A stretch of DNA of 56,834 nt from a virus. Positions 7,094 through 47,370 of this stretch are shown piece after piece. The position numbers were made by a program, and so were the translations under genes. Under the pieces are notes generated by a model. It did not search any database. It saw only the letters and a list, made by a program, of their open reading frames with translations, and was not told the origin of the DNA. Numbering within the stretch: position 1 is the first letter of the stretch; each line of letters begins with the position of its first letter. The DNA lies in IMG/VR virus record IMGVR_UViG_3300029708_000018, positions 1-56,834 of that record; one strand, given 5' to 3'.

Positions 7094-9043
7094 TCACACC
7101 GCCTCAATCACAAGTTCTTTGTCCTGTGTGTGCTTTAACATAATCAATTGGTTATCAATCTGTGGTATTCTCCAATCATCAACACTCTCTGTATCATCGA
7201 TGATAATTGGAAAATTAACGCTTGCCACTTTCTGAAAAGCTCGGCATATGTCAACTTCCGTTAACATCCTTGCACCATGATTGAGATTTCTCGCGTACGC
7301 TTCGCCATTGTAAACAAAGTCGCAGCACTCCTCGGTATCACCATTTAAGAGCGGTCTAAACAGCTTTGCTGTAGCAAAATCCAGATACTTATTAACATCA
7401 GCCTGTAAGAGCTCATTCTTCTTGCGAGTAAACTCTTTCAGCAAATCAATCTTTCTTTCCCAATCAGCAATCTGCTGATTAAGGTTGGCACGCTCATTTT
7501 CTTTATCTGCAATATCATTGTCGATACTCTGATTATTCTTGTTACCATCTTCAATTCTTGTATCTACAGCCGATATTTTTCTGATAAGTTCCGCTTTCTC
7601 CTGCTCAAGTTCTCTCTTGATGTCTGCAAAAGTATTTTCTTCGGACAAAGACTTTTCTTTTTCCTCGATTTCCTTAGTCAGCGCAACATATTCAGCGTTT
7701 GCGCTTATGTCCACTTCTGTAGGTACTTTGTCGTACTCCTGTTTGACAACTTCCTGCTTCTCTGTAATCTCTTTAAGCTCTGCTCTATAATCGGAAATAT
7801 CCTTTTCAGCAGTCTTTATGTCGCCCTCGAAGGTCTTGATATTACCACTCAAAAGATTTCCTTTGTCAGTAATTTTCTCAAGGTTAGCTTTCTTCTTAGC
7901 TTCAAAATCATTTCTTAGGGCTCCTATCTTATCCTCTGGCAACTTCTGACCGCACATAGGACAATCGGTGTCGGTTTCATCAAATACAAGCTGTTTTGCC
8001 TTATTCCATTCGACACGAGTATCATCAAGCTCCTTTTTCATCTGCACTACACTTCTTTCAAGTGTTTCTTTTGACTGTTCCTTTGAAGATATATCAGCTT
8101 CAAGCCTTGATTTCTGCTGCTCAAAATCATGTAACTGTGCCGTAAGTTCACTTCTCTTCCTTTCGTTTCCTGTATTAGCTTCACGTTTCATGTCGCTCTG
8201 CTTGAATTTAAGCTGTAAAATTCCGTCTGTAATTGCCTGCCGCTCCTCAAGGAATTTGTTGTTGTCAGCCAACTTGTCCTCAATTTCCTTAAGTTGTGGC
8301 TCATAGGATTTCTTCTGTATTTCAAGCTCTGCAAGGTCAACATAGCTTCTTGTAGAACGGATAGTGTCAATGGCTGTGGAAATATCGTCTCTCTCCTTAA
8401 TCAGTCCTTTACTGCCATTCCTGCCACCTGTGCCGTTTAACTTGCCACGGCATACTTTTTTGAGCTGGTCTGCGTCTCCATCATCAAACATCGGCTTAAG
8501 TTCGGCAAACTGTGGAAACATATCGCAGATTTCCTTATCAGTACGTGTTCCAAAATAGCTTGCAAGTGCTAATCTCTGCTCTGCCTGTGACTTGTTGAGT
8601 AATGTCATGGCATTTAAGCAAAATGGTAATACTCCAAGCTCTGCCATGTTGTCATTGATGTACTGATTGTAGTCAGCCATTTTATATGGCACGTCATTGA
8701 TTGAGTAATCAGTGACACTGCCTGTAATCTCACCCTTTTTGTTACGTTTCTGCCTTGTAACCTTTTTCAAAGTCTTTTCTTTTCCACCAATCTCAAAGGT
8801 AACAGCCCTCACAATGTCAACATCGTCAATCTCGACTCCGTTCTCGTCATGTGGTCTTATGCCTGTAATCTCTCTGTCGTTCTCATCGTGGCAATTCAGC
8901 ACATCAAGGATAATTCTCTTAACTGTCGATTTGCCGACTTCATTCTGACCGGACAACACAGTTTTCATCGAAAAGTCTGCGTCTAATGTGTTTTTGCCGT
9001 AGAATTTACAAAAATTCTGTGCAAAAATGTGTGTAATTTTCAT
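7094..9043 (-). CDS. Rad50/SbcC-like SMC-type ATPase.
   Basis: Walker A SGQNEVGKST, a long coiled coil with a CPMCGQ zinc-hook-like motif, and Walker B PIIIDDTES. Confidence 0.8.
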   Translation of the reverse strand: MKITHIFAQNFCKFYGKNTLDADFSMKTVLSGQNEVGKSTVKRIILDVLNCHDENDREITGIRPHDENGVEIDDVDIVRAVTFEIGGKEKTLKKVTRQKRNKKGEITGSVTDYSINDVPYKMADYNQYINDNMAELGVLPFCLNAMTLLNKSQAEQRLALASYFGTRTDKEICDMFPQFAELKPMFDDGDADQLKKVCRGKLNGTGGRNGSKGLIKERDDISTAIDTIRSTRSYVDLAELEIQKKSYEPQLKEIEDKLADNNKFLEERQAITDGILQLKFKQSDMKREANTGNERKRSELTAQLHDFEQQKSRLEADISSKEQSKETLERSVVQMKKELDDTRVEWNKAKQLVFDETDTDCPMCGQKLPEDKIGALRNDFEAKKKANLEKITDKGNLLSGNIKTFEGDIKTAEKDISDYRAELKEITEKQEVVKQEYDKVPTEVDISANAEYVALTKEIEEKEKSLSEENTFADIKRELEQEKAELIRKISAVDTRIEDGNKNNQSIDNDIADKENERANLNQQIADWERKIDLLKEFTRKKNELLQADVNKYLDFATAKLFRPLLNGDTEECCDFVYNGEAYARNLNHGARMLTEVDICRAFQKVASVNFPIIIDDTESVDDWRIPQIDNQLIMLKHTQDKELVIEAV

Positions 9044-35122: not shown

Positions 35123-35181
35123 ATCGCCAATGGGGAAGAGAGGAATTGAACCTCCAATGTTTACCGCTTGGCGATAGCCCT
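35123..35181 (-). other. tRNA-derived fragment. Has a tRNA-Gln-like 5' acceptor/D-arm joined to a T-arm, with no anticodon arm.
   Basis: The minus strand reads AGGGCTATCGCCAAGCGGTAA-ACATT-GGAGG-TTCAATT-CCTCT-CTTCCCCA. An 8-bp stem ATCGCCAA/TTGGCGAT encloses it. Confidence 0.45.
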
Positions 35182-35189
35182 AAAATTTA

Positions 35190-38659: not shown

Positions 38660-38688
38660 ATTGTATTCTAATATTAGAATAATGTCAA
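38660..38688 (-). promoter_or_regulatory. Promoter TTGACA-17-TACAAT with the 16-bp palindrome ATTCTAATATTAGAAT in its spacer.
   Basis: Read on the minus strand. The palindrome occupies 38665-38680. Confidence 0.7.
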
Positions 38689-38695
38689 TAGGTTT

Positions 38696-38923
38696 TTAAT
38701 AATATTTTATTTTTTCTTCATCCGTTGGCACAATCTCCACTAGATCGCCCGGCTGGCACTTGCACATAATACATATTTTATTAAGCGTTTCTAGTGTGAT
38801 ACTCTTTCCGGCTTTTATATTCTGTGCGGTTTGCGCCGGCAAAAGCCTTTCTTTCTGTATGCGTGCCTGATTATATCCATGCTCTTTTAATAATGTAAAA
38901 ATGTCTGCTTTGTATTTTATCAT
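38696..38923 (-). CDS. XRE-family HTH regulator (75 aa).
   Basis: ARIQKERLLPAQTAQNIKAGKSITLETLNKIC is the HTH. AAGGAGGAAG RBS. Confidence 0.75.
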   Translation of the reverse strand: MIKYKADIFTLLKEHGYNQARIQKERLLPAQTAQNIKAGKSITLETLNKICIMCKCQPGDLVEIVPTDEEKIKYY

Positions 38924-38975: not shown

Positions 38976-39008
38976 TTAAAAATATTCTAATTTTTGAATA
39001 AAAAGTTG

Positions 39009-39037
39009 TTGACTTTATTCTAATATTAGAATATAAT
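39009..39037 (+). promoter_or_regulatory. Consensus promoter TTGACT-17-TATAAT with the same 16-bp palindrome in its spacer.
   Basis: The palindrome occupies 39017-39032. A degenerate copy lies at about 38983-38999. Confidence 0.75.
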
Positions 39038-39074: not shown

Positions 39075-39410
39075 ATGAAAGATTATACAAAGTTTATGAA
39101 ATGGGCGGTTGTTTACGTAACCGACAGAAAAGAACAGGACGACAGAAAGAGCAAAGTTAATGTTGAAGCACTTTTTAGTTCTCCAGTACAGGCGGAGGAT
39201 AATTATATCATCCACAACCCAGAAATTAAGCGTTATATTCTCAATGTTGATGATTTAGAAGAGTTTGAAACAGTATACAATCAATTTCAAGATTTAAGGG
39301 AAAAATATGGAGAATATGCAATTTTCCACGTTAAAGACCTTAATTTTAGTTGTGATAAGGAAAACAAATGGCGTGAGATATTAGAAGTATATACAAGTAT
39401 TGATTTTTAG
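39075..39410 (+). CDS. Hypothetical protein (111 aa). First gene of the cassette.
   Basis: GTGAGGT RBS. ORF track. Confidence 0.6.
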   Translation: MKDYTKFMKWAVVYVTDRKEQDDRKSKVNVEALFSSPVQAEDNYIIHNPEIKRYILNVDDLEEFETVYNQFQDLREKYGEYAIFHVKDLNFSCDKENKWREILEVYTSIDF

Positions 39411-39499
39411 CCGAAACGCTCCGGTTTGGAGCGTCAGCCGCGGGATGGTCTCCCGGCTCTGATGATGGCAGACCGCACAATGAAAGGATGGTTGATACT

Positions 39500-39814
39500 A
39501 TGAGAACAATTAAATTACAAGGAATACACACACCACAAAAAGCAATTCCGGCGGCAGAATTAAAGCCGGGAATGGTTACAGTTTGGAATTTTGGTTACAC
39601 TTCCACAGTTAAAAGCGTAGAGCCTACCAAGAGCGGAAAAAGCGTTAAATGCGTTATTATTTCCAACGAAAGCGGAAACGAACACACTAGAACAATGCGA
39701 GCTGATAGGCTTGTAGGAGTTAAAGAGGAAGAGCCAAAAATCCAATTGATAAGGCACTTGCAAGCAGGCAAAAAACATATAGTGGAATATATAGCGATGT
39801 CGGCACAGCATTAG
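39500..39814 (+). CDS. Hypothetical protein (104 aa, starts MRTIKLQGIH). Possibly extended by a -1 shift at an A6 run.
   Basis: AAAGGATGG lies 8 nt upstream of the ATG at 39500. Confidence 0.55.
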   Translation: MRTIKLQGIHTPQKAIPAAELKPGMVTVWNFGYTSTVKSVEPTKSGKSVKCVIISNESGNEHTRTMRADRLVGVKEEEPKIQLIRHLQAGKKHIVEYIAMSAQH

Positions 39815-39939
39815 ACACTTTTAGTACTTCGGAGCTTGCAGAGTATTATATACAACGTTTTGGTGGTAGCGCATTGCGTTATTTCCTCGAGCAAGGAATA
39901 ATTTCCGCAGAAATTAGCAAAGAAAAAGAAGCGATATAA
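39724..39939 (+). other. Open -1 frame with no start codon and a protein-like translation (…DTFSTSELAEYYIQRFGGSALRYFLEQGIISAEISKEKEAI).
   Basis: This frame overlaps the 3' end of 39500..39814. It becomes accessible from that gene at AAAAAA (39770-39775). Confidence 0.35.
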
Positions 39940-39940
39940 T

Positions 39941-39983
39941 AGCAAGGTTGGCACGCTTCCGGGGTTCGATTCCCCGGCTTGCT
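39941..39983 (+). ncRNA. tRNA top-half mimic (acceptor-like stem stacked on a canonical T-arm). It has no anticodon arm, so it is not a tRNA gene.
   Basis: AGCAAG/CTTGCT (6 bp) directly abuts CCGGGG-TTCGATT-CCCCGG, which contains the GGTTCGATTCC T-arm consensus. Confidence 0.45.
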
Positions 39984-40024
39984 TTACCGGAATGACCGGG
40001 AAATTTTAAAAATATGGAGGAATT

Positions 40025-40270
40025 ATGAGTATGGAAAAGCTGAAAAGATTACAGAAAAAGTTGTCTGCATCTGGATATAATGCAGAATTTATTACGGTTT
40101 ACAACCGCAACGGATCCGGTGAAAACGTTCCGGCATTGCGTATAAGCACAGACTACGAAGGACAGTACCCGCCGAAAGAGACATACACGGCTATAAGCGA
40201 TATTAAAAAGCTATGTAAAAATCATGTAACAGAATGCCGCGGATTTTACACCGCCATATTTATTTATTAA
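40025..40270 (+). CDS. Hypothetical protein (81 aa).
   Basis: TGGAGGAATT RBS. ORF track. Confidence 0.6.
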   Translation: MSMEKLKRLQKKLSASGYNAEFITVYNRNGSGENVPALRISTDYEGQYPPKETYTAISDIKKLCKNHVTECRGFYTAIFIY

Positions 40271-40272
40271 CT

Positions 40273-40319
40273 AACCGCCGCAGAGGATGCCAGCCGGACC
40301 GATACCGGCGGCGGTTTTT
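40273..40319 (+). terminator. GC-rich intrinsic terminator.
   Basis: AACCGCCGC...GCGGCGGTT with an inner CCGG/CCGG hairpin, followed by TTTTT. Confidence 0.65.
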
Positions 40320-40977: not shown

Positions 40978-41130
40978 CTAGAAATTTTTTGCGGTGCAAA
41001 AGTTTTGTTCCGTAAAAATCAGCGATTTAGCTGTATAACTGGACTGCTTCAATTCTTTTATTAACTTTTCCTTAGTCATTCCCGGATTAGTCCTTTGTAT
41101 ATATTCCAGTAATTCATTTAATTTATCCAT
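40978..41130 (-). CDS. Small protein (50 aa, starts MDKLNELLEYIQ).
   Basis: The internal ATG overlaps the upstream stop (coupling). Confidence 0.45.
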   Translation of the reverse strand: MDKLNELLEYIQRTNPGMTKEKLIKELKQSSYTAKSLIFTEQNFCTAKNF

Positions 41131-41452
41131 AGTATCTATCACTCCTAACTGCTCCAAGTACCATATCAACAATGTCAAATACTTCATCTCCATAAGTTGC
41201 TACAAAATCGCACAATATCTCTTCCTGCTCAATTGGTAAATACACATCATAGGACATACAGATTGCGTGGCATACTTCATGTATCAACACCTTGCGTTCC
41301 ATGTGTCCATGTAAAGCATTTGACAGATAAATTGTGTGTGTATTTCTATCTGTTACACCCAAGCTGATTGTGTTGTTAGACCGCCTTAATTCGCTTGAAT
41401 TTGAATTTTTATATTGTACTTGCCACATTGTGCCATTAATTGTAAAAATCAT
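41123..41452 (-). CDS. HExxH zinc metallopeptidase-like protein (ImmA/IrrE- or SprT-like, 109 aa).
   Basis: LIHEVCHAI motif. Located in a regulatory neighbourhood. Confidence 0.55.
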   Translation of the reverse strand: MIFTINGTMWQVQYKNSNSSELRRSNNTISLGVTDRNTHTIYLSNALHGHMERKVLIHEVCHAICMSYDVYLPIEQEEILCDFVATYGDEVFDIVDMVLGAVRSDRYYG

Positions 41453-46239: not shown

Positions 46240-47370
46240 TTATATTACTTTGAGTGCTTCTGCTACTCTGTCCATTTCTAAGTTCTTTTGTTCGTCTGTC
46301 GTGTGAACATAAAGATTCATCGTGATACCTATGTTTGAGTGTCCTAGGATTGTCTGCAAGGTTTTGGGTGTCATACCAGCTTCAATACATCTTGTTGCGA
46401 ATGTGTGTCTTAATACGTGCATTGAGAATCTCGGTATGTGCGCTCTATCACACGCTTTGTAAATCCCAGTATCATATGTGCTATTTTTCACAGGTGCCCC
46501 GGTCTTACACAAAAACACTATGTCTCTCCATTGAATATCAATACATTTGAGCGAAGCGTTTTTGAGTTTCTGTAATTTCAACAAAGATATTGCTTCATCA
46601 GTGAGTGGAATTGTCCTATATCCTGATTTACTTTTAGGCGGTCCCTCTCTCCATTCGCCTGTTGAATGTCTATACTCTAAGCTCCTGACTATGCTTATGG
46701 TCTTGGCTTTAAAGTCTACATCTTTCCATTTAAGCCCCACAAGTTCGCCTGTTCTTAGTCCGGTCTGCAAGACAAATCTGTATTGATACTCGTATGATGT
46801 ATCTTTGATAGCTTCGCAGAATTTTTTCTGATTTTCTATCGTTAGTGTTTCTTTCTTTGAGGACTCCTTGCCGATGTCGGATTTTACCATGCGGTTGCAC
46901 GGATTTTTTGGGATGATCTCGCTTTGATATGCATAATCAAGCATATTATATAGTGCTATGCGTGTCTGATATATTGTTGCTGTTCTGTAATCCTCGTCAG
47001 CCATATTAGTCATTATCTTTTGGCAGTGGAGCGTATTAACTTCTCGCAGTATCTTATTTCCGATAACAGGCTTTATATTGCGATTGTATCTCTCGGTGTA
47101 GTTCCTTAGTGTGTTTGGTCTTACTGTGCGCTTCTTAACGCTTATCCAGTAGTCAAACCATGCGTCAACCAACATATCAGACGGAAAATCAGGATTGCTA
47201 TGCTCATCAGTGTACTGCTCATCAGCAAGCCACTTTTTGCACTCTTGTAGTTTTGCAAATAATTTCTGTACTCGCTTTCCATTCCTCGTTGTGTATCTGC
47301 CGACATAGTACTTGTCTTTTCTTTGACTAATGCCCCTACCTAGCTCTTTACCTTTCAAGTCCTTTCCCAT
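46240..47370 (-). CDS. int: Tyrosine integrase (Tn916 / phage-integrase family, with an N-terminal arm-binding domain).
   Basis: C-terminal HVLRHTFATRCIEAGM...LGHSNIGITMNLYVH (H-x-x-R...Y). N-terminal GISQRKDKYYVGRYTTRNGKR. Confidence 0.9.
   Translation of the reverse strand: MGKDLKGKELGRGISQRKDKYYVGRYTTRNGKRVQKLFAKLQECKKWLADEQYTDEHSNPDFPSDMLVDAWFDYWISVKKRTVRPNTLRNYTERYNRNIKPVIGNKILREVNTLHCQKIMTNMADEDYRTATIYQTRIALYNMLDYAYQSEIIPKNPCNRMVKSDIGKESSKKETLTIENQKKFCEAIKDTSYEYQYRFVLQTGLRTGELVGLKWKDVDFKAKTISIVRSLEYRHSTGEWREGPPKSKSGYRTIPLTDEAISLLKLQKLKNASLKCIDIQWRDIVFLCKTGAPVKNSTYDTGIYKACDRAHIPRFSMHVLRHTFATRCIEAGMTPKTLQTILGHSNIGITMNLYVHTTDEQKNLEMDRVAEALKVI

Follow-up and report, generated by a model that had tools for sequence, protein, structure and literature searches.

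The 56,834-nt viral DNA that we analysed (IMG/VR record IMGVR_UViG_3300029708_000018, positions 1 to 56,834; hereafter the window) carries a conserved mimic of the top half of a tRNA, embedded in cis between two genes of a phage accessory operon. Judging from sequence comparison, we think it about an even call that this transcribed element serves as an intercistronic processing signal. The element spans 43 nt of the plus strand (39941-39983) and consists of a 6+6 bp coaxial helix under a consensus T-loop. Its acceptor stem pairs AGCAAG (39941-39946) with CTTGCT (39978-39983), its T-arm stem pairs CCGGGG with CCCCGG (39959-39964 and 39972-39977), its 7-nt T-loop reads TTCGATT (39965-39971), and a D-loop-like linker of 12 nt, GTTGGCACGCTT (39947-39958), stands in for the D stem, the anticodon arm and the variable loop. 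The coordinates, the 6+6 bp pairing and the 12-nt linker given in a preliminary description of this DNA all proved correct when the sequence was read. Going beyond that structural reading, the linker keeps a D-loop-like YYGG, namely a UUGG that resembles Y16 Y17 G18 G19 of tRNA, and could thereby form a tRNA elbow. The sequence GGTTCGATTCC is present only once in the window, and a covariance model scan found no second minihelix copy there; a T-loop-like site on the minus strand (35142-35152) was rejected as a second copy, being a different and non-abutting structure.

The element is not a chance hairpin. Folded alone, it reached -16.2 kcal/mol. In a 61-nt fold a competing structure was the minimum free energy (MFE) form (-18.4 versus -16.7 kcal/mol for the minihelix; z = -0.77), and in the natural downstream context (39935-40012) the MFE structure was exactly the minihelix followed by a small hairpin at 39987-39999 (-22.7 kcal/mol). 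A structural descriptor retrieved 167 instances from 1.11 Mb of related loci, compared with 3 from reversed-sequence controls. Paired cells amounted to 99.6% in the instances and 37-59% in slid controls, a statistic that is partly circular, as the descriptor used to gather the instances itself requires pairing. Joint alignment of all families with MAFFT misaligned the 5' strands, and equal-length instances were therefore used instead. Covariation, which the preliminary description had proposed to look for in relatives, was found: RNAalifold, given 23 ungapped instances, returned the exact 6+6 bp minihelix with compensatory double changes in 10 of the 12 pairs (all 6 acceptor pairs, across families, and 4 of the 6 T-stem pairs). 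With a covariance model built from relatives, the copy in the window reached 51.7 bits (E = 7e-11) on the plus strand, as opposed to 10.4 bits on the minus strand. Because the model separates the strands in this way, because G-U pairs occur in the helices of relatives, and because all operon instances lie on the coding strand, the signal is strand specific and acts at the RNA level.

The element recurs in hundreds of related gut phages. Its 25-mer core was found in at least 120 IMG/VR phage contigs, and at least eight sequence families with unrelated stems have the same architecture, most of them with a coaxial helix of 12 bp. Among the 23 diverse instances, the equivalents of G52, G53, U54, U55, A58 and C61 were invariant and those of C56 and R57 were kept in at least 90%; GG is present in the linker of 151 of the 167 unique instances (family consensus GGYYGGC(R)YYU). 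At least one operon copy was seen in 57 of 68 protein-anchored relatives; 23 carry two or three copies, every one of them placed between genes. Some relatives show intermediate forms bearing one extra arm, and deposited phage genomes in INPHARED returned generic T-arm matches only. These comparative data strongly back the earlier claim that the structure, with its two acceptor strands, forms a self-contained acceptor/T-arm minihelix, as opposed to a 3' remnant of a tRNA.

The position of the element relative to coding sequence is similarly regular. In the window it begins 1 nt past the TAA of gene B (39937-39939), a second stop codon, TAG (39940-39942), overlaps the start of the helix, and gene C starts 41 nt further downstream. 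In relatives, an upstream ORF of at least 40 codons ended no more than 20 nt away in 106 of 153 unique contexts, mostly at -2 to +3 nt from the helix, and genes abutted the element on both sides, as in the window, in 85 of the 153; the median distance to a Shine-Dalgarno sequence and start codon was 45 nt. The stop codon overlapped the first 1-2 nt of the 12-bp helix in 27 of the 106 contexts. With coding sequence so close there is no space for a promoter of its own, and the element is therefore co-transcribed with the operon. The term "free-standing", which had been applied to it, is misleading for a part of an operon transcript lying 1-3 nt from the end of coding sequence.

The immediate flanks resemble those of tRNAs that lack an encoded CCA. 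U39940 occupies position -1, U39984 is a discriminator-like base, and a U-rich trailer without CCA follows. Position -1 was U or A in 141 of the 167 instances, again with a U-rich trailer and no encoded CCA. The 122 genuine tRNAs that these phages carry showed the same flank pattern (CCA encoded in 3 of 122), which is circumstantial evidence that the element may be a substrate of RNase P, RNase Z and the CCA-adding enzyme. Furthermore, a small, co-varying hairpin started 0-5 nt past the helix in 147 of the 167 unique contexts (88%), formed by many different sequences. Its counterpart in the window, CCGG-AAUGA-CCGG (39987-39999, plus strand), lies 3 nt past the helix in the MFE fold and may, once cleavage has taken place, protect the 5' end of the downstream mRNA.

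The operon around the element is small. A sigma-70-type promoter, TTGACT-17-TATAAT (39009-39037, plus strand; 11 of 12 consensus matches in a consensus scan), belongs to it, contains the palindrome ATTCTAATATTAGAAT (39017-39032) in its spacer and diverges from a Cro/C1-type HTH gene on the minus strand (38696-38923). Gene A (39075-39410) is followed by a type II hammerhead ribozyme (39409-39477; Rfam RF02276, 63.9 bits against a gathering score of 37), by gene B, the upstream cassette gene (39488-39939), and, past the minihelix, by gene C, the downstream cassette gene (40025-40270), all on the plus strand. Gene C has a Shine-Dalgarno sequence, GGAGG (40016-40020, plus strand), 33 nt downstream of the element, and no promoter of its own was predicted for it. 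A conserved, terminator-like structured element, CCGCCGCAGAGGATGCC.GCCGGA....TACCGGCGGCGG plus T5 (40274-40319, plus strand), comes after gene C and also follows unrelated genes in three other loci (L009, L028 and L049). Gene B is frameshifted in the window: the run at 39736-39740 is A5, as against A6 in a relative of 98% identity. In relatives gene B is a single gene of about 150 aa. The A6 run at 39770-39775 was considered as the frameshift site and rejected in favour of 39736-39740. The genes flanking the element gave no match in Pfam or PHROGs, and the "anti-defence cassette" of the preliminary description is a putative label. This is a region of hypervariable accessory genes adjoining lysogeny-control genes.

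The hammerhead is a regular partner of the minihelix. Hammerhead homologues were found in 64 related loci, always upstream of a minihelix and on its strand, and in all 57 loci carrying both elements the hammerhead lay upstream on that strand at a distance of 189-1490 nt, that is, one or two genes. The pairing is not general: no minihelix was found near the similar hammerheads of two unrelated phages (MT835516.1 and Dulem virus 39). Perreault et al. (2011, PMC3088659) found single variable genes of prophages to be flanked by hammerheads and proposed that these divide long phage transcripts into mRNAs of gene length. The present arrangement follows that genomic logic, with small RNA-cleavage modules placed around single non-conserved genes of prophage operons; it differs in that the second bracket is no ribozyme and mimics the substrate of a ribozyme acting in trans, RNase P, and of RNase Z.

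Searches with models of known RNA classes placed the element outside all of them. The tRNA and tmRNA models suggested in the preliminary description identified neither in the window, and the T-arm invariants were nevertheless kept. ARAGORN predicted no tRNA gene and no tmRNA, and RF00005 gave no match there even at E <= 10. A canonical tRNA gene was rejected, since only 12 nt separate the acceptor 5' strand from the T stem; the 12-bp acceptor/T coaxial helix and the T-loop invariants G53 U54 U55 C56 R57 A58 C61 are those of tRNA. The tRNA-like domain of tmRNA was rejected on the negative ARAGORN result and the same 12-nt spacing of the halves. At gathering threshold, no Rfam 15 family matched the position of the minihelix, either in the window or in 21 related loci that carry several minihelix families; the matches obtained were tRNA, Hammerhead_II and int-alpA only, all elsewhere, and no RAGATH motif (hammerhead/twister-associated) was among them. 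The mascRNA-menRNA family RF01684 was the sole Rfam family to align end to end with the window element, with a score below threshold (20.2 bits, E = 0.15, against a gathering score of 42.5). Seven full tRNAs predicted by ARAGORN in the same slot (six "tRNA-Stop(tta)" and one "tRNA-Lys") were not real and proved to be poor models around the minihelix family AGCTAATA...TATTAGCT; other "suppressor" tRNA predictions are probably not real tRNAs either. The main text of Weinberg 2017 (PMC5737381) makes no mention of such a motif, and a literature search covering few subscription journals found no paper describing minihelix punctuation in phages.

Among a processing signal, a terminator and a decoy, a processing or stability signal appears to fit the evidence best. 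We favour it because of the position of the element, its flanks resembling those of CCA-less tRNAs, the hairpin at what would be the downstream 5' end, and the partnership with the hammerhead. These fit the processing or stability signal that the preliminary description had listed among its possibilities; the cleavage itself, with its consequences for mRNA fate, is the part that we infer. In this scheme the operon would be transcribed from the promoter at 39009-39037, and the hammerhead at 39409-39477 would cut itself upstream of gene B, after a GUC at about 39435. Host RNase P would then cut between U39940 and A39941, one nucleotide past the gene B TAA, and host RNase Z would cut after the discriminator-like U39984, as in CCA-less tRNA precursors of Firmicutes. 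The two cuts would free a tRNA-like RNA of about 44 nt, which may be a by-product or an effector and could be extended by the CCA-adding enzyme. They would also place the new 5' end of the gene C mRNA a mere 2-3 nt ahead of a protective hairpin, with the Shine-Dalgarno site of the gene beyond it. In this way each cassette gene would come to be expressed from an mRNA of its own, with a stability that could be set individually.

As counterpoints to processing, we note that, wherever the stop codon overlaps the helix (27 of 106 contexts), cutting at the canonical position would take some of that codon away, and that an RNase P cut would leave the 3' end of the upstream mRNA unprotected. In addition, the helix is identical in more than 120 phages though other sequences evidently work, which could mean that it has a sequence-specific partner and is not a purely structural signal; recombination and a short time since divergence would likewise be expected to keep the helix identical.

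An alternative to cis processing is that the operon carries the minihelix for the sake of the RNA released from it, a small tRNA mimic that would work in trans, may be CCA-tailed or even aminoacylated, and would sit between genes merely in order to be expressed. As a decoy or sponge, such an RNA could bind proteins that read the acceptor, T-arm and elbow, such as tRNA-targeting defence nucleases or nucleotidyltransferases, host enzymes of tRNA processing or modification, or EF-Tu. Its appeal lies in the extreme conservation of the 25-mer helix amid a variable linker and variable flanks, in the retention of the elbow-forming GG together with all T-loop invariants, and in the location of the element in a hypervariable accessory region by lysogeny control, a typical seat of anti-defence genes; mascRNA and t-element RNAs are, moreover, stable and CCA-tailed (PMC1920247). 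We nonetheless consider it unlikely. An RNA without an anticodon arm cannot decoy anticodon nucleases, families with wholly different acceptors occupy equivalent slots, sometimes three per operon, which speaks against one sequence-specific target, and both the downstream hairpin and the tight stop/start coupling would be superfluous for a decoy. It would also need the same RNase P and RNase Z processing, so that it overlaps with the processing signal that we favour.

A second alternative places the function in DNA, with the element as a recombination anchor or cassette boundary, comparable to integron attC sites or to the boundary sequences of mosaic lambdoid phages, and with an RNA fold that is incidental or ancestral. 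Across 141 loci, 26 upstream and 37 downstream sequence clusters in 76 combinations are joined exactly at the element. One locus (L143) is a chimera in which the 5' half of family 2 is fused within the T-loop to a 3' half of the main family, two others (L200 and L201) carry the 3' half only, and unrelated upstream genes are enriched, within their final 40 nt and in varied frames, for a TTAGCA-like copy of the 5' strand. Against this stand properties of RNA, as compensatory changes maintain pairing in both helices, strand specificity shows both in the G-U pairs and in the score of the covariance model, the loop that is conserved matches the RNA tertiary motif of the tRNA T-loop exactly, and the orientation is always that of transcription. 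No dedicated recombinase lies nearby (the tyrosine integrase is 6 kb off), and any conserved intergenic RNA element would become a passive recombination junction. As a primary function we therefore hold recombination to be quite improbable. Nevertheless, by design or as a by-product, the element also serves as homology where cassettes recombine, because no other sequence is conserved between the genes, which reassort freely.

A wider proposition seems just as doubtful to us, namely that Lachnospiraceae gut phages use previously undescribed, minimal, anticodon-less tRNA mimics together with hammerheads as a modular RNA punctuation of hypervariable accessory-gene cassettes, in which CCA-tailed mimics act in trans and 45-bp modules form recombination joints analogous to integron cassettes. 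Each cassette would then consist of a gene with its own cleavage module, the freed mimics would act on host tRNA-directed machinery or defences, and the same 45-bp modules would let cassettes swap between phages.

It is somewhat harder still to credit an element that remains uncleaved, as an intrinsic terminator or attenuator, or as a 3' stabiliser of the upstream mRNA against 3'-5' exonucleases. A consensus scan does flag the T-arm hairpin followed by CTTGCTTTAC as terminator-like, and a helix of -16.2 kcal/mol directly follows the stop codon. The apparent U-tract, however, is the paired 3' strand of the acceptor, whereas an intrinsic terminator combines a GC-rich hairpin with an unpaired U-tract and has no dependent gene downstream. 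Sister families have no U-tract at all (GCAAGC-A-UUAAGC, GCGCGG-ACUAC and ACCGCU-AUUCG), gene C has a strong Shine-Dalgarno sequence and no promoter of its own, and a canonical terminator comes after gene C. On these grounds the "elaborate terminator" of the preliminary description is disfavoured, and neither role explains the invariant T-loop, the GG of the linker or the 12-bp length. Finally, a decayed tRNA gene, or an attP core copied from the 3' end of a host tRNA, is largely refuted and very improbable: the T-arm and acceptor 3' strand are indeed the part duplicated by tRNA-targeting integrases, the phage is temperate, with a tyrosine integrase at 46240-47370, about 6.3 kb away, and relatives show the one-extra-arm intermediates, but the 23-mer comprising these two parts was found in just 4 of the 185,579 species-representative genomes, each time as a minihelix context in prophage-like DNA and never in a real tRNA, it is shared by 0 of 122 phage tRNAs, the 5' acceptor strand is present and co-varies, up to three differing copies stand in one operon, the site lies within an operon, 6 kb away from the integrase, and a neutral pseudogene would not have been conserved in more than 120 genomes. 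Reviving this reading would take a tRNA gene from Lachnospiraceae that ends, where it borders a prophage, in ...CCCCGGCTTGCT.

If RNase P and RNase Z do cut at the element, it would be, in the literature that we searched, the first natural case in a bacterial virus of tRNA punctuation by a minimal, non-decoding mimic. It would also bear on a question dating from 2011, the role of hammerhead ribozymes in prophages: as a ribozyme and a mimic of a host RNase substrate bracket the same variable genes, segmentation of accessory-cassette transcripts becomes directly testable. The element also ties a structured RNA to the exact joints of phage accessory-gene reassortment, and, as a compact 43-nt natural processing tag with a downstream stabiliser hairpin, it could serve polycistronic expression in Firmicutes.

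Several known systems share features with the phage element. Punctuation by tRNAs was reportedly described for animal mitochondria by Ojala and co-workers in 1981, and the tufB operon of E. coli yields a bacterial tRNA-mRNA co-transcript. In both, tRNA structures between coding regions are cleavage signals for RNase P and RNase Z; those tRNAs are full-length and functional, whereas the phage element has no anticodon and cannot decode. An acceptor/T-arm minihelix suffices in vitro for RNase P, RNase Z and the CCA-adding enzyme; model substrates of RNase P are said to go back to McClain, Guerrier-Takada and Altman in 1987. Engineered tRNAs, as in tRNA-gRNA arrays, are used to cut polycistronic RNAs; synthetic minihelix tags are laboratory constructs of which the phage element would be a natural counterpart. 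The module known as mascRNA or MEN-beta (RF01684) likewise sits inside a longer transcript, where RNase P, by cutting, generates the 3' terminus of the RNA upstream, while a small CCA-tailed RNA is freed by RNase Z; it belongs to a vertebrate nuclear lncRNA and has D- and anticodon-like stems, and the phage element is not a member. The tRNA-like domain of tmRNA and the YrlA Y-RNA (PMC4201824) are bacterial mimics of acceptor, T-arm and elbow without an anticodon arm, which differ in being stand-alone genes with their halves split by large functional domains, and no Rfam match to tmRNA or Y-RNA families was found in the window.

The closest functional analogy appears to be with the t-elements of plant mitochondria. 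These non-canonical tRNA-like structures have the same GGTTCRANYCC motif in a perfectly conserved T-arm and adjoin coding genes in long transcripts; RNase P and RNase Z cleave them at mRNA ends, their ends match mRNA 5' or 3' termini, and the RNAs gain non-templated C or CA after release (Forner et al. 2007, PMC1920247). The phage element shares a conserved T-arm tRNA-like structure that stands next to a protein-coding gene and is co-transcribed with it. The t-elements differ in being organellar, mostly degenerate cloverleaves of about 74 nt, and scattered single copies that form no family, whereas the phage element is a 43-nt, two-helix minihelix without an anticodon arm, repeated within operons, present in hundreds of phages and paired with a hammerhead.

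On the plus strand of the window, the stop codons TAA (39937-39939) and TAG (39940-39942) lead into the acceptor-stem 5' strand AGCAAG (39941-39946), the 12-nt linker GTTGGCACGCTT (39947-39958), the T-stem 5' strand CCGGGG (39959-39964), the T-loop TTCGATT (39965-39971), the T-stem 3' strand CCCCGG (39972-39977) and the acceptor-stem 3' strand CTTGCT (39978-39983), exactly as the preliminary description had read them; GGTTCGATTCC occurs once in the window. A 61-nt excerpt, which truncates the downstream hairpin, gave a competing structure as its minimum-energy fold and an unremarkable energy (z = -0.77). When 39935-40012 was folded, the minimum-energy structure (-22.7 kcal/mol) matched the minihelix exactly and added a hairpin at 39987-39999. 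ARAGORN found no tRNA or tmRNA genes in the window, and the sole Rfam match there at gathering thresholds was a type II hammerhead ribozyme on the same strand as the element. No Rfam 15 family matched the element; at E <= 10 mascRNA-menRNA was the only family aligning to it (20.2 bits, where the gathering threshold is 42.5).

At least 120 contigs of IMG/VR, mostly of about 57 kb, contained the 25-mer CCGGGGTTCGATTCCCCGGCTTGCT, and every contig found with it carried the 5' strand (A/G)GCAAG, followed by a variable linker in which GG is kept. On the 3' side came U/C-U-(U)-ACC, a small sequence-variable hairpin, an A-rich stretch and GGAGG. The element was not found in INPHARED phages. A descriptor (T-loop TTCRANY, T stem of at least 5 bp directly abutting an acceptor stem of at least 6 bp, linker of 4-30 nt) gave 167 matches in the 25-mer loci and window (1.11 Mb) versus 3 in reversed sequence. 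The 25-mer loci also held sister families with the same architecture and unrelated stems: GCTTGC-..-GGYTGG-TTCGATT-CCAGCC-GCAAGC, TTCGCGT-..-TTCCGG-TTCGATT-CCGGGA-GCGCGGA, AGCGGT-..-ACAGGG-TTCGATT-CCCTGT-RCCGCT, ATCCGTT-..-GCAGGG-TTCGAAT-CCCTGC-GACGGAT, AAGTGACG-..-GGCGG-TTCGATT-CCGTC-CGTCACTT, GCAACC-..-GCCCGG-TTCGATT-CCGGGC-GGTTGT and AGCTAATA-..-GCCGG-TTCGATT-CCGGC-TATTAGCT. We also fetched 80 loci through a conserved protein encoded nearby, that of the M78/ImmA-like gene at 41123-41452, which avoids sampling by the element itself. At least one minihelix lay in the operon in 57 of the 68 loci with enough sequence, and two or three in 23, all on the coding strand; the exact 25-mer was found in only 33 of the 80, the others having variants that included T-stem swaps such as TCCCGG/CCGGGA. 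On its transcript strand, the operon region had 119 T-loop motifs, of which 84 showed the full architecture; many of the remaining motifs were single-mismatch decays or recombinant halves, and the rest lay inside coding sequence. In one locus (L009) small genes are separated by three different minihelices, at 0, +495 and +858 nt, and L028 and L049 have two each.

RNAalifold returned exactly the 6+6 bp structure for 23 equal-length instances, which MAFFT left ungapped, with changes on both sides in 10 of the 12 pairs. Pair counting gave a covariation score of 0.596 versus 0.154 in shuffles, and 99.6% standard pairs compared with 37-59% when partners were slid by 1-3 columns. Since a descriptor demanding pairing had been used to gather the instances, this percentage is in part circular; the 167-to-3 contrast, the independent families and the survey anchored on the nearby protein are free of that circularity. 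Among the 23 instances, the counterparts of G52, G53, U54, U55, A58 and C61 were invariant, and C56 and R57 were kept in at least 90%; all of these residues are universal in the T-arm of tRNA. The linker has the consensus GGYYGGC(R)YYU, which is D-loop-like (cf. Y16 Y17 G18 G19), with GG in 151 of 167 unique instances; the element probably forms the elbow in addition to the coaxial helix. With a covariance model made from the 23 sequences, the window copy scored 51.7 bits (E = 7e-11) on the plus strand versus 10.4 bits on the minus strand, and no second copy was detected in the window. Because the score is strand-specific and G-U pairs are present, the constraint is on the coding-strand RNA. 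Taken together, the consensus fold, the covariation of pairs and the independent families in relatives bear out the earlier proposal of an acceptor/T-arm minihelix, and it is close to certain that the element is a genuine, conserved, strand-specific mimic of the tRNA top half.

The best-supported mechanism, with roughly an even chance of being correct, is that the element serves as a signal for processing by RNase P and RNase Z. In 106 of 153 unique contexts, the element lies within 20 nt of the end of an upstream ORF of 40 codons or more; this end is usually at -2 to +3 nt relative to the first base of the 12-bp helix, the stop codon is TAA in 80 of the 106, and a Shine-Dalgarno sequence and start codon follow at a median of 45 nt. 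A promoter would not fit into this spacing, so the element is transcribed within the operon RNA. Position -1 is U in 77 and A in 64 of 167 unique contexts; the first base after the helix is mostly U, and the trailer begins UUA, UUC or UAC with no encoded CCA. The tRNAs of the same phages have U or A at -1 in 102 of 122, U-rich trailers and an encoded CCA in 3 of 122. CCA-less tRNA precursors of Firmicutes are cut at the 5' side by RNase P, itself a ribozyme, then after the discriminator by RNase Z before CCA is added, and acceptor/T-arm minihelices suffice in vitro as substrates for all three activities. A Firmicute host would agree with the Lachnospiraceae host range and with ribosome-binding sites of the form GGAGG. 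A hairpin begins 0-5 nt past the helix in 147 of 167 contexts, its stems having many different sequences, and the 32 nt after the helix have a mean minimum free energy of -6.0 kcal/mol versus -1.9 when shuffled. Following an RNase Z cut, this hairpin would stand 2-3 nt from the new 5' end, which in B. subtilis mRNA decay is the geometry of 5' stabilisers blocking RNase J1, and it could act in that way here.

Among the main alternatives, a released mimic acting in trans would need the same processing. Another is that the element is a DNA-level recombination joint. When 300 nt upstream and 300 nt downstream of 141 main-family loci were clustered, 26 upstream and 37 downstream clusters occurred in 76 combinations, the window's upstream cluster being paired with six different downstream clusters; homologues of gene C followed the element in only 4 loci and homologues of gene B preceded it in 8-14. 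One locus (L143, about 8170-8240 and nearby) has a GCTTGC-family 5' half fused within the T-loop to a main-family 3' half, and L200 and L201 have the 3' half only; among these variants, one hammerhead 3' end runs directly into a 5'-truncated minihelix. By the clustering and the chimeras, the element is the conserved joint where accessory genes reassort, a role that we regard as a consequence of conservation, which places about 45 identical bp between genes that are otherwise unrelated, and that may also be selected for. The acceptor 5' strand further recurs as TTAGCA(A/G) within the final 40 nt before the element in 24 of 61 distinct upstream contexts (L001-L204), about 10-fold enriched at the 3' ends of unrelated genes and in different reading frames; this copy may reflect past recombination or offer CTTGCT another strand to pair with.

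The last main alternative is an uncleaved stabiliser or terminator. The suggestion of an elaborate terminator is not convincing: the T-rich CTTGCTTT, for which a scan flagged the T-arm, is paired acceptor strand, sister families lack a U-tract, and gene C needs read-through, a canonical terminator being located after it. An attP site or host tRNA fragment was rejected. Only 4 of 185,579 species-representative genomes contain the 23-mer that spans the T-arm and the acceptor 3' strand, and none has it in a tRNA: all four copies sit in minihelices within prophage-like DNA of Lachnospiraceae or Clostridium sp. CAG:510, one genome being probably a mis-binned Treponema MAG. The 23-mer is also shared by none of 122 distinct tRNAs of these phages, and the element lies 6 kb from the tyrosine integrase (46240-47370). 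ARAGORN calls of 'tRNA-Stop(tta)' or 'tRNA-Lys' in the operon (L131, L135, L151, L152, L156, L160, L163) were rejected as poor cloverleaf fits imposed on members of the AGCTAATA...TATTAGCT minihelix family, which automatic annotation could wrongly label as suppressor tRNAs.

The window is a temperate siphovirus-like phage with genes for portal, major capsid protein, tail fibre, methylases and helicase. Nearly all its genes are on the minus strand, and the element lies within a short plus-strand operon that runs from a promoter found by scanning (TTGACT-17-TATAAT, 39009-39037) through gene A (39075-39410), hammerhead, gene B (39488-39939), minihelix, hairpin, GGAGG, gene C (40025-40270) and a terminator-like element to gene D. 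Because genes A-D had no Pfam or PHROGs matches, the label 'anti-defence' is putative only. Gene B is frameshifted in the window (39488-39814 and 39724-39939), with A5 at 39736-39740 versus A6 in the 98%-identical L116; relatives have one ORF of about 150 aa ending directly 5' of the element, and the short A-run could be an assembly error, pseudogene or slippage site. The terminator-like element at 40274-40319 (+), CCGCCGCAGAGGATGCC(A/C)GCCGGA(CCGA/TCAC)TACCGGCGGCGG plus a T-run, is nearly unchanged after unrelated genes in L009, L028 and L049, so that the cassette region has two conserved intergenic modules. A Cro/C1-type HTH gene (38696-38923), divergent from the operon, is flanked on both sides by the perfect palindrome ATTCTAATATTAGAAT (38665-38680 and 39017-39032, the latter in the promoter spacer), with a partial copy near 38984; the palindrome is likely the operator of this repressor, which would place the minihelix operon under repressor control. 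In Dulem virus 39 from lemur faeces (PP511791.1, 2735-4262), a Cro/C1 HTH gene likewise diverges from an operon of small genes, in which a similar hammerhead lies between two genes and there is no minihelix.

Phage tRNA arrays lie about 5 kb from the element on the opposite strand in L009, L013, L036, L046 and L057; int-alpA RNA motifs (RF02996) directly adjoin their tRNA genes, and the arrays end in an anticodon-less minihelix, AGCGGT...ACAGGG-TTCGATT-CCCTGT-RCCGCT. The window has no array. At the site where relatives have theirs, 35124-35185 (-), it has a tRNA-like remnant directly 3' of a small ORF, ATCGCCAA-GCGGTAAACATT-GGAGG-TTCAATT-CCTCT-CTTCCCCA-TTGGCGAT, with a D-arm-like start GGGCTATCGCCAAGCGGTAA, an outer stem not abutting the T-arm and no Rfam match.

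The hammerhead between genes A and B (39409-39477, +; Rfam 63.9 bits) was recovered by an nhmmer profile in 64 sequences among the 206 fetched loci and the window. Wherever both RNAs occurred, the minihelix lay downstream on the same strand (57 of 57), at a spacing of 189-1490 nt, and therefore one or two small genes are bracketed; the hammerhead was still present in 3 of 11 protein-anchored loci lacking a minihelix. Cleavage is predicted after GUC at about 39435 and would give the gene B mRNA a structured leader with a 5'-OH end, made up of most of the ribozyme.

No description of phage elements of this kind was found in Rfam 15 or in the searchable literature, whose coverage is incomplete. 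Prophage hammerheads have been reported to adjoin single, non-constant genes, and were proposed to cut long phage transcripts into gene-length mRNAs (Perreault et al. 2011, PMC3088659); here, in contrast, one bracket is a mimic of an RNase P/RNase Z substrate. We class the element with the tRNA-like processing elements previously known from organelles and vertebrate lncRNAs. It shares the motif GGTTCRANYCC with plant mitochondrial t-elements, which were found with that motif, direct RNase P and RNase Z cuts that create mRNA ends, and are excised as RNA bearing non-templated C/CA (PMC1920247).
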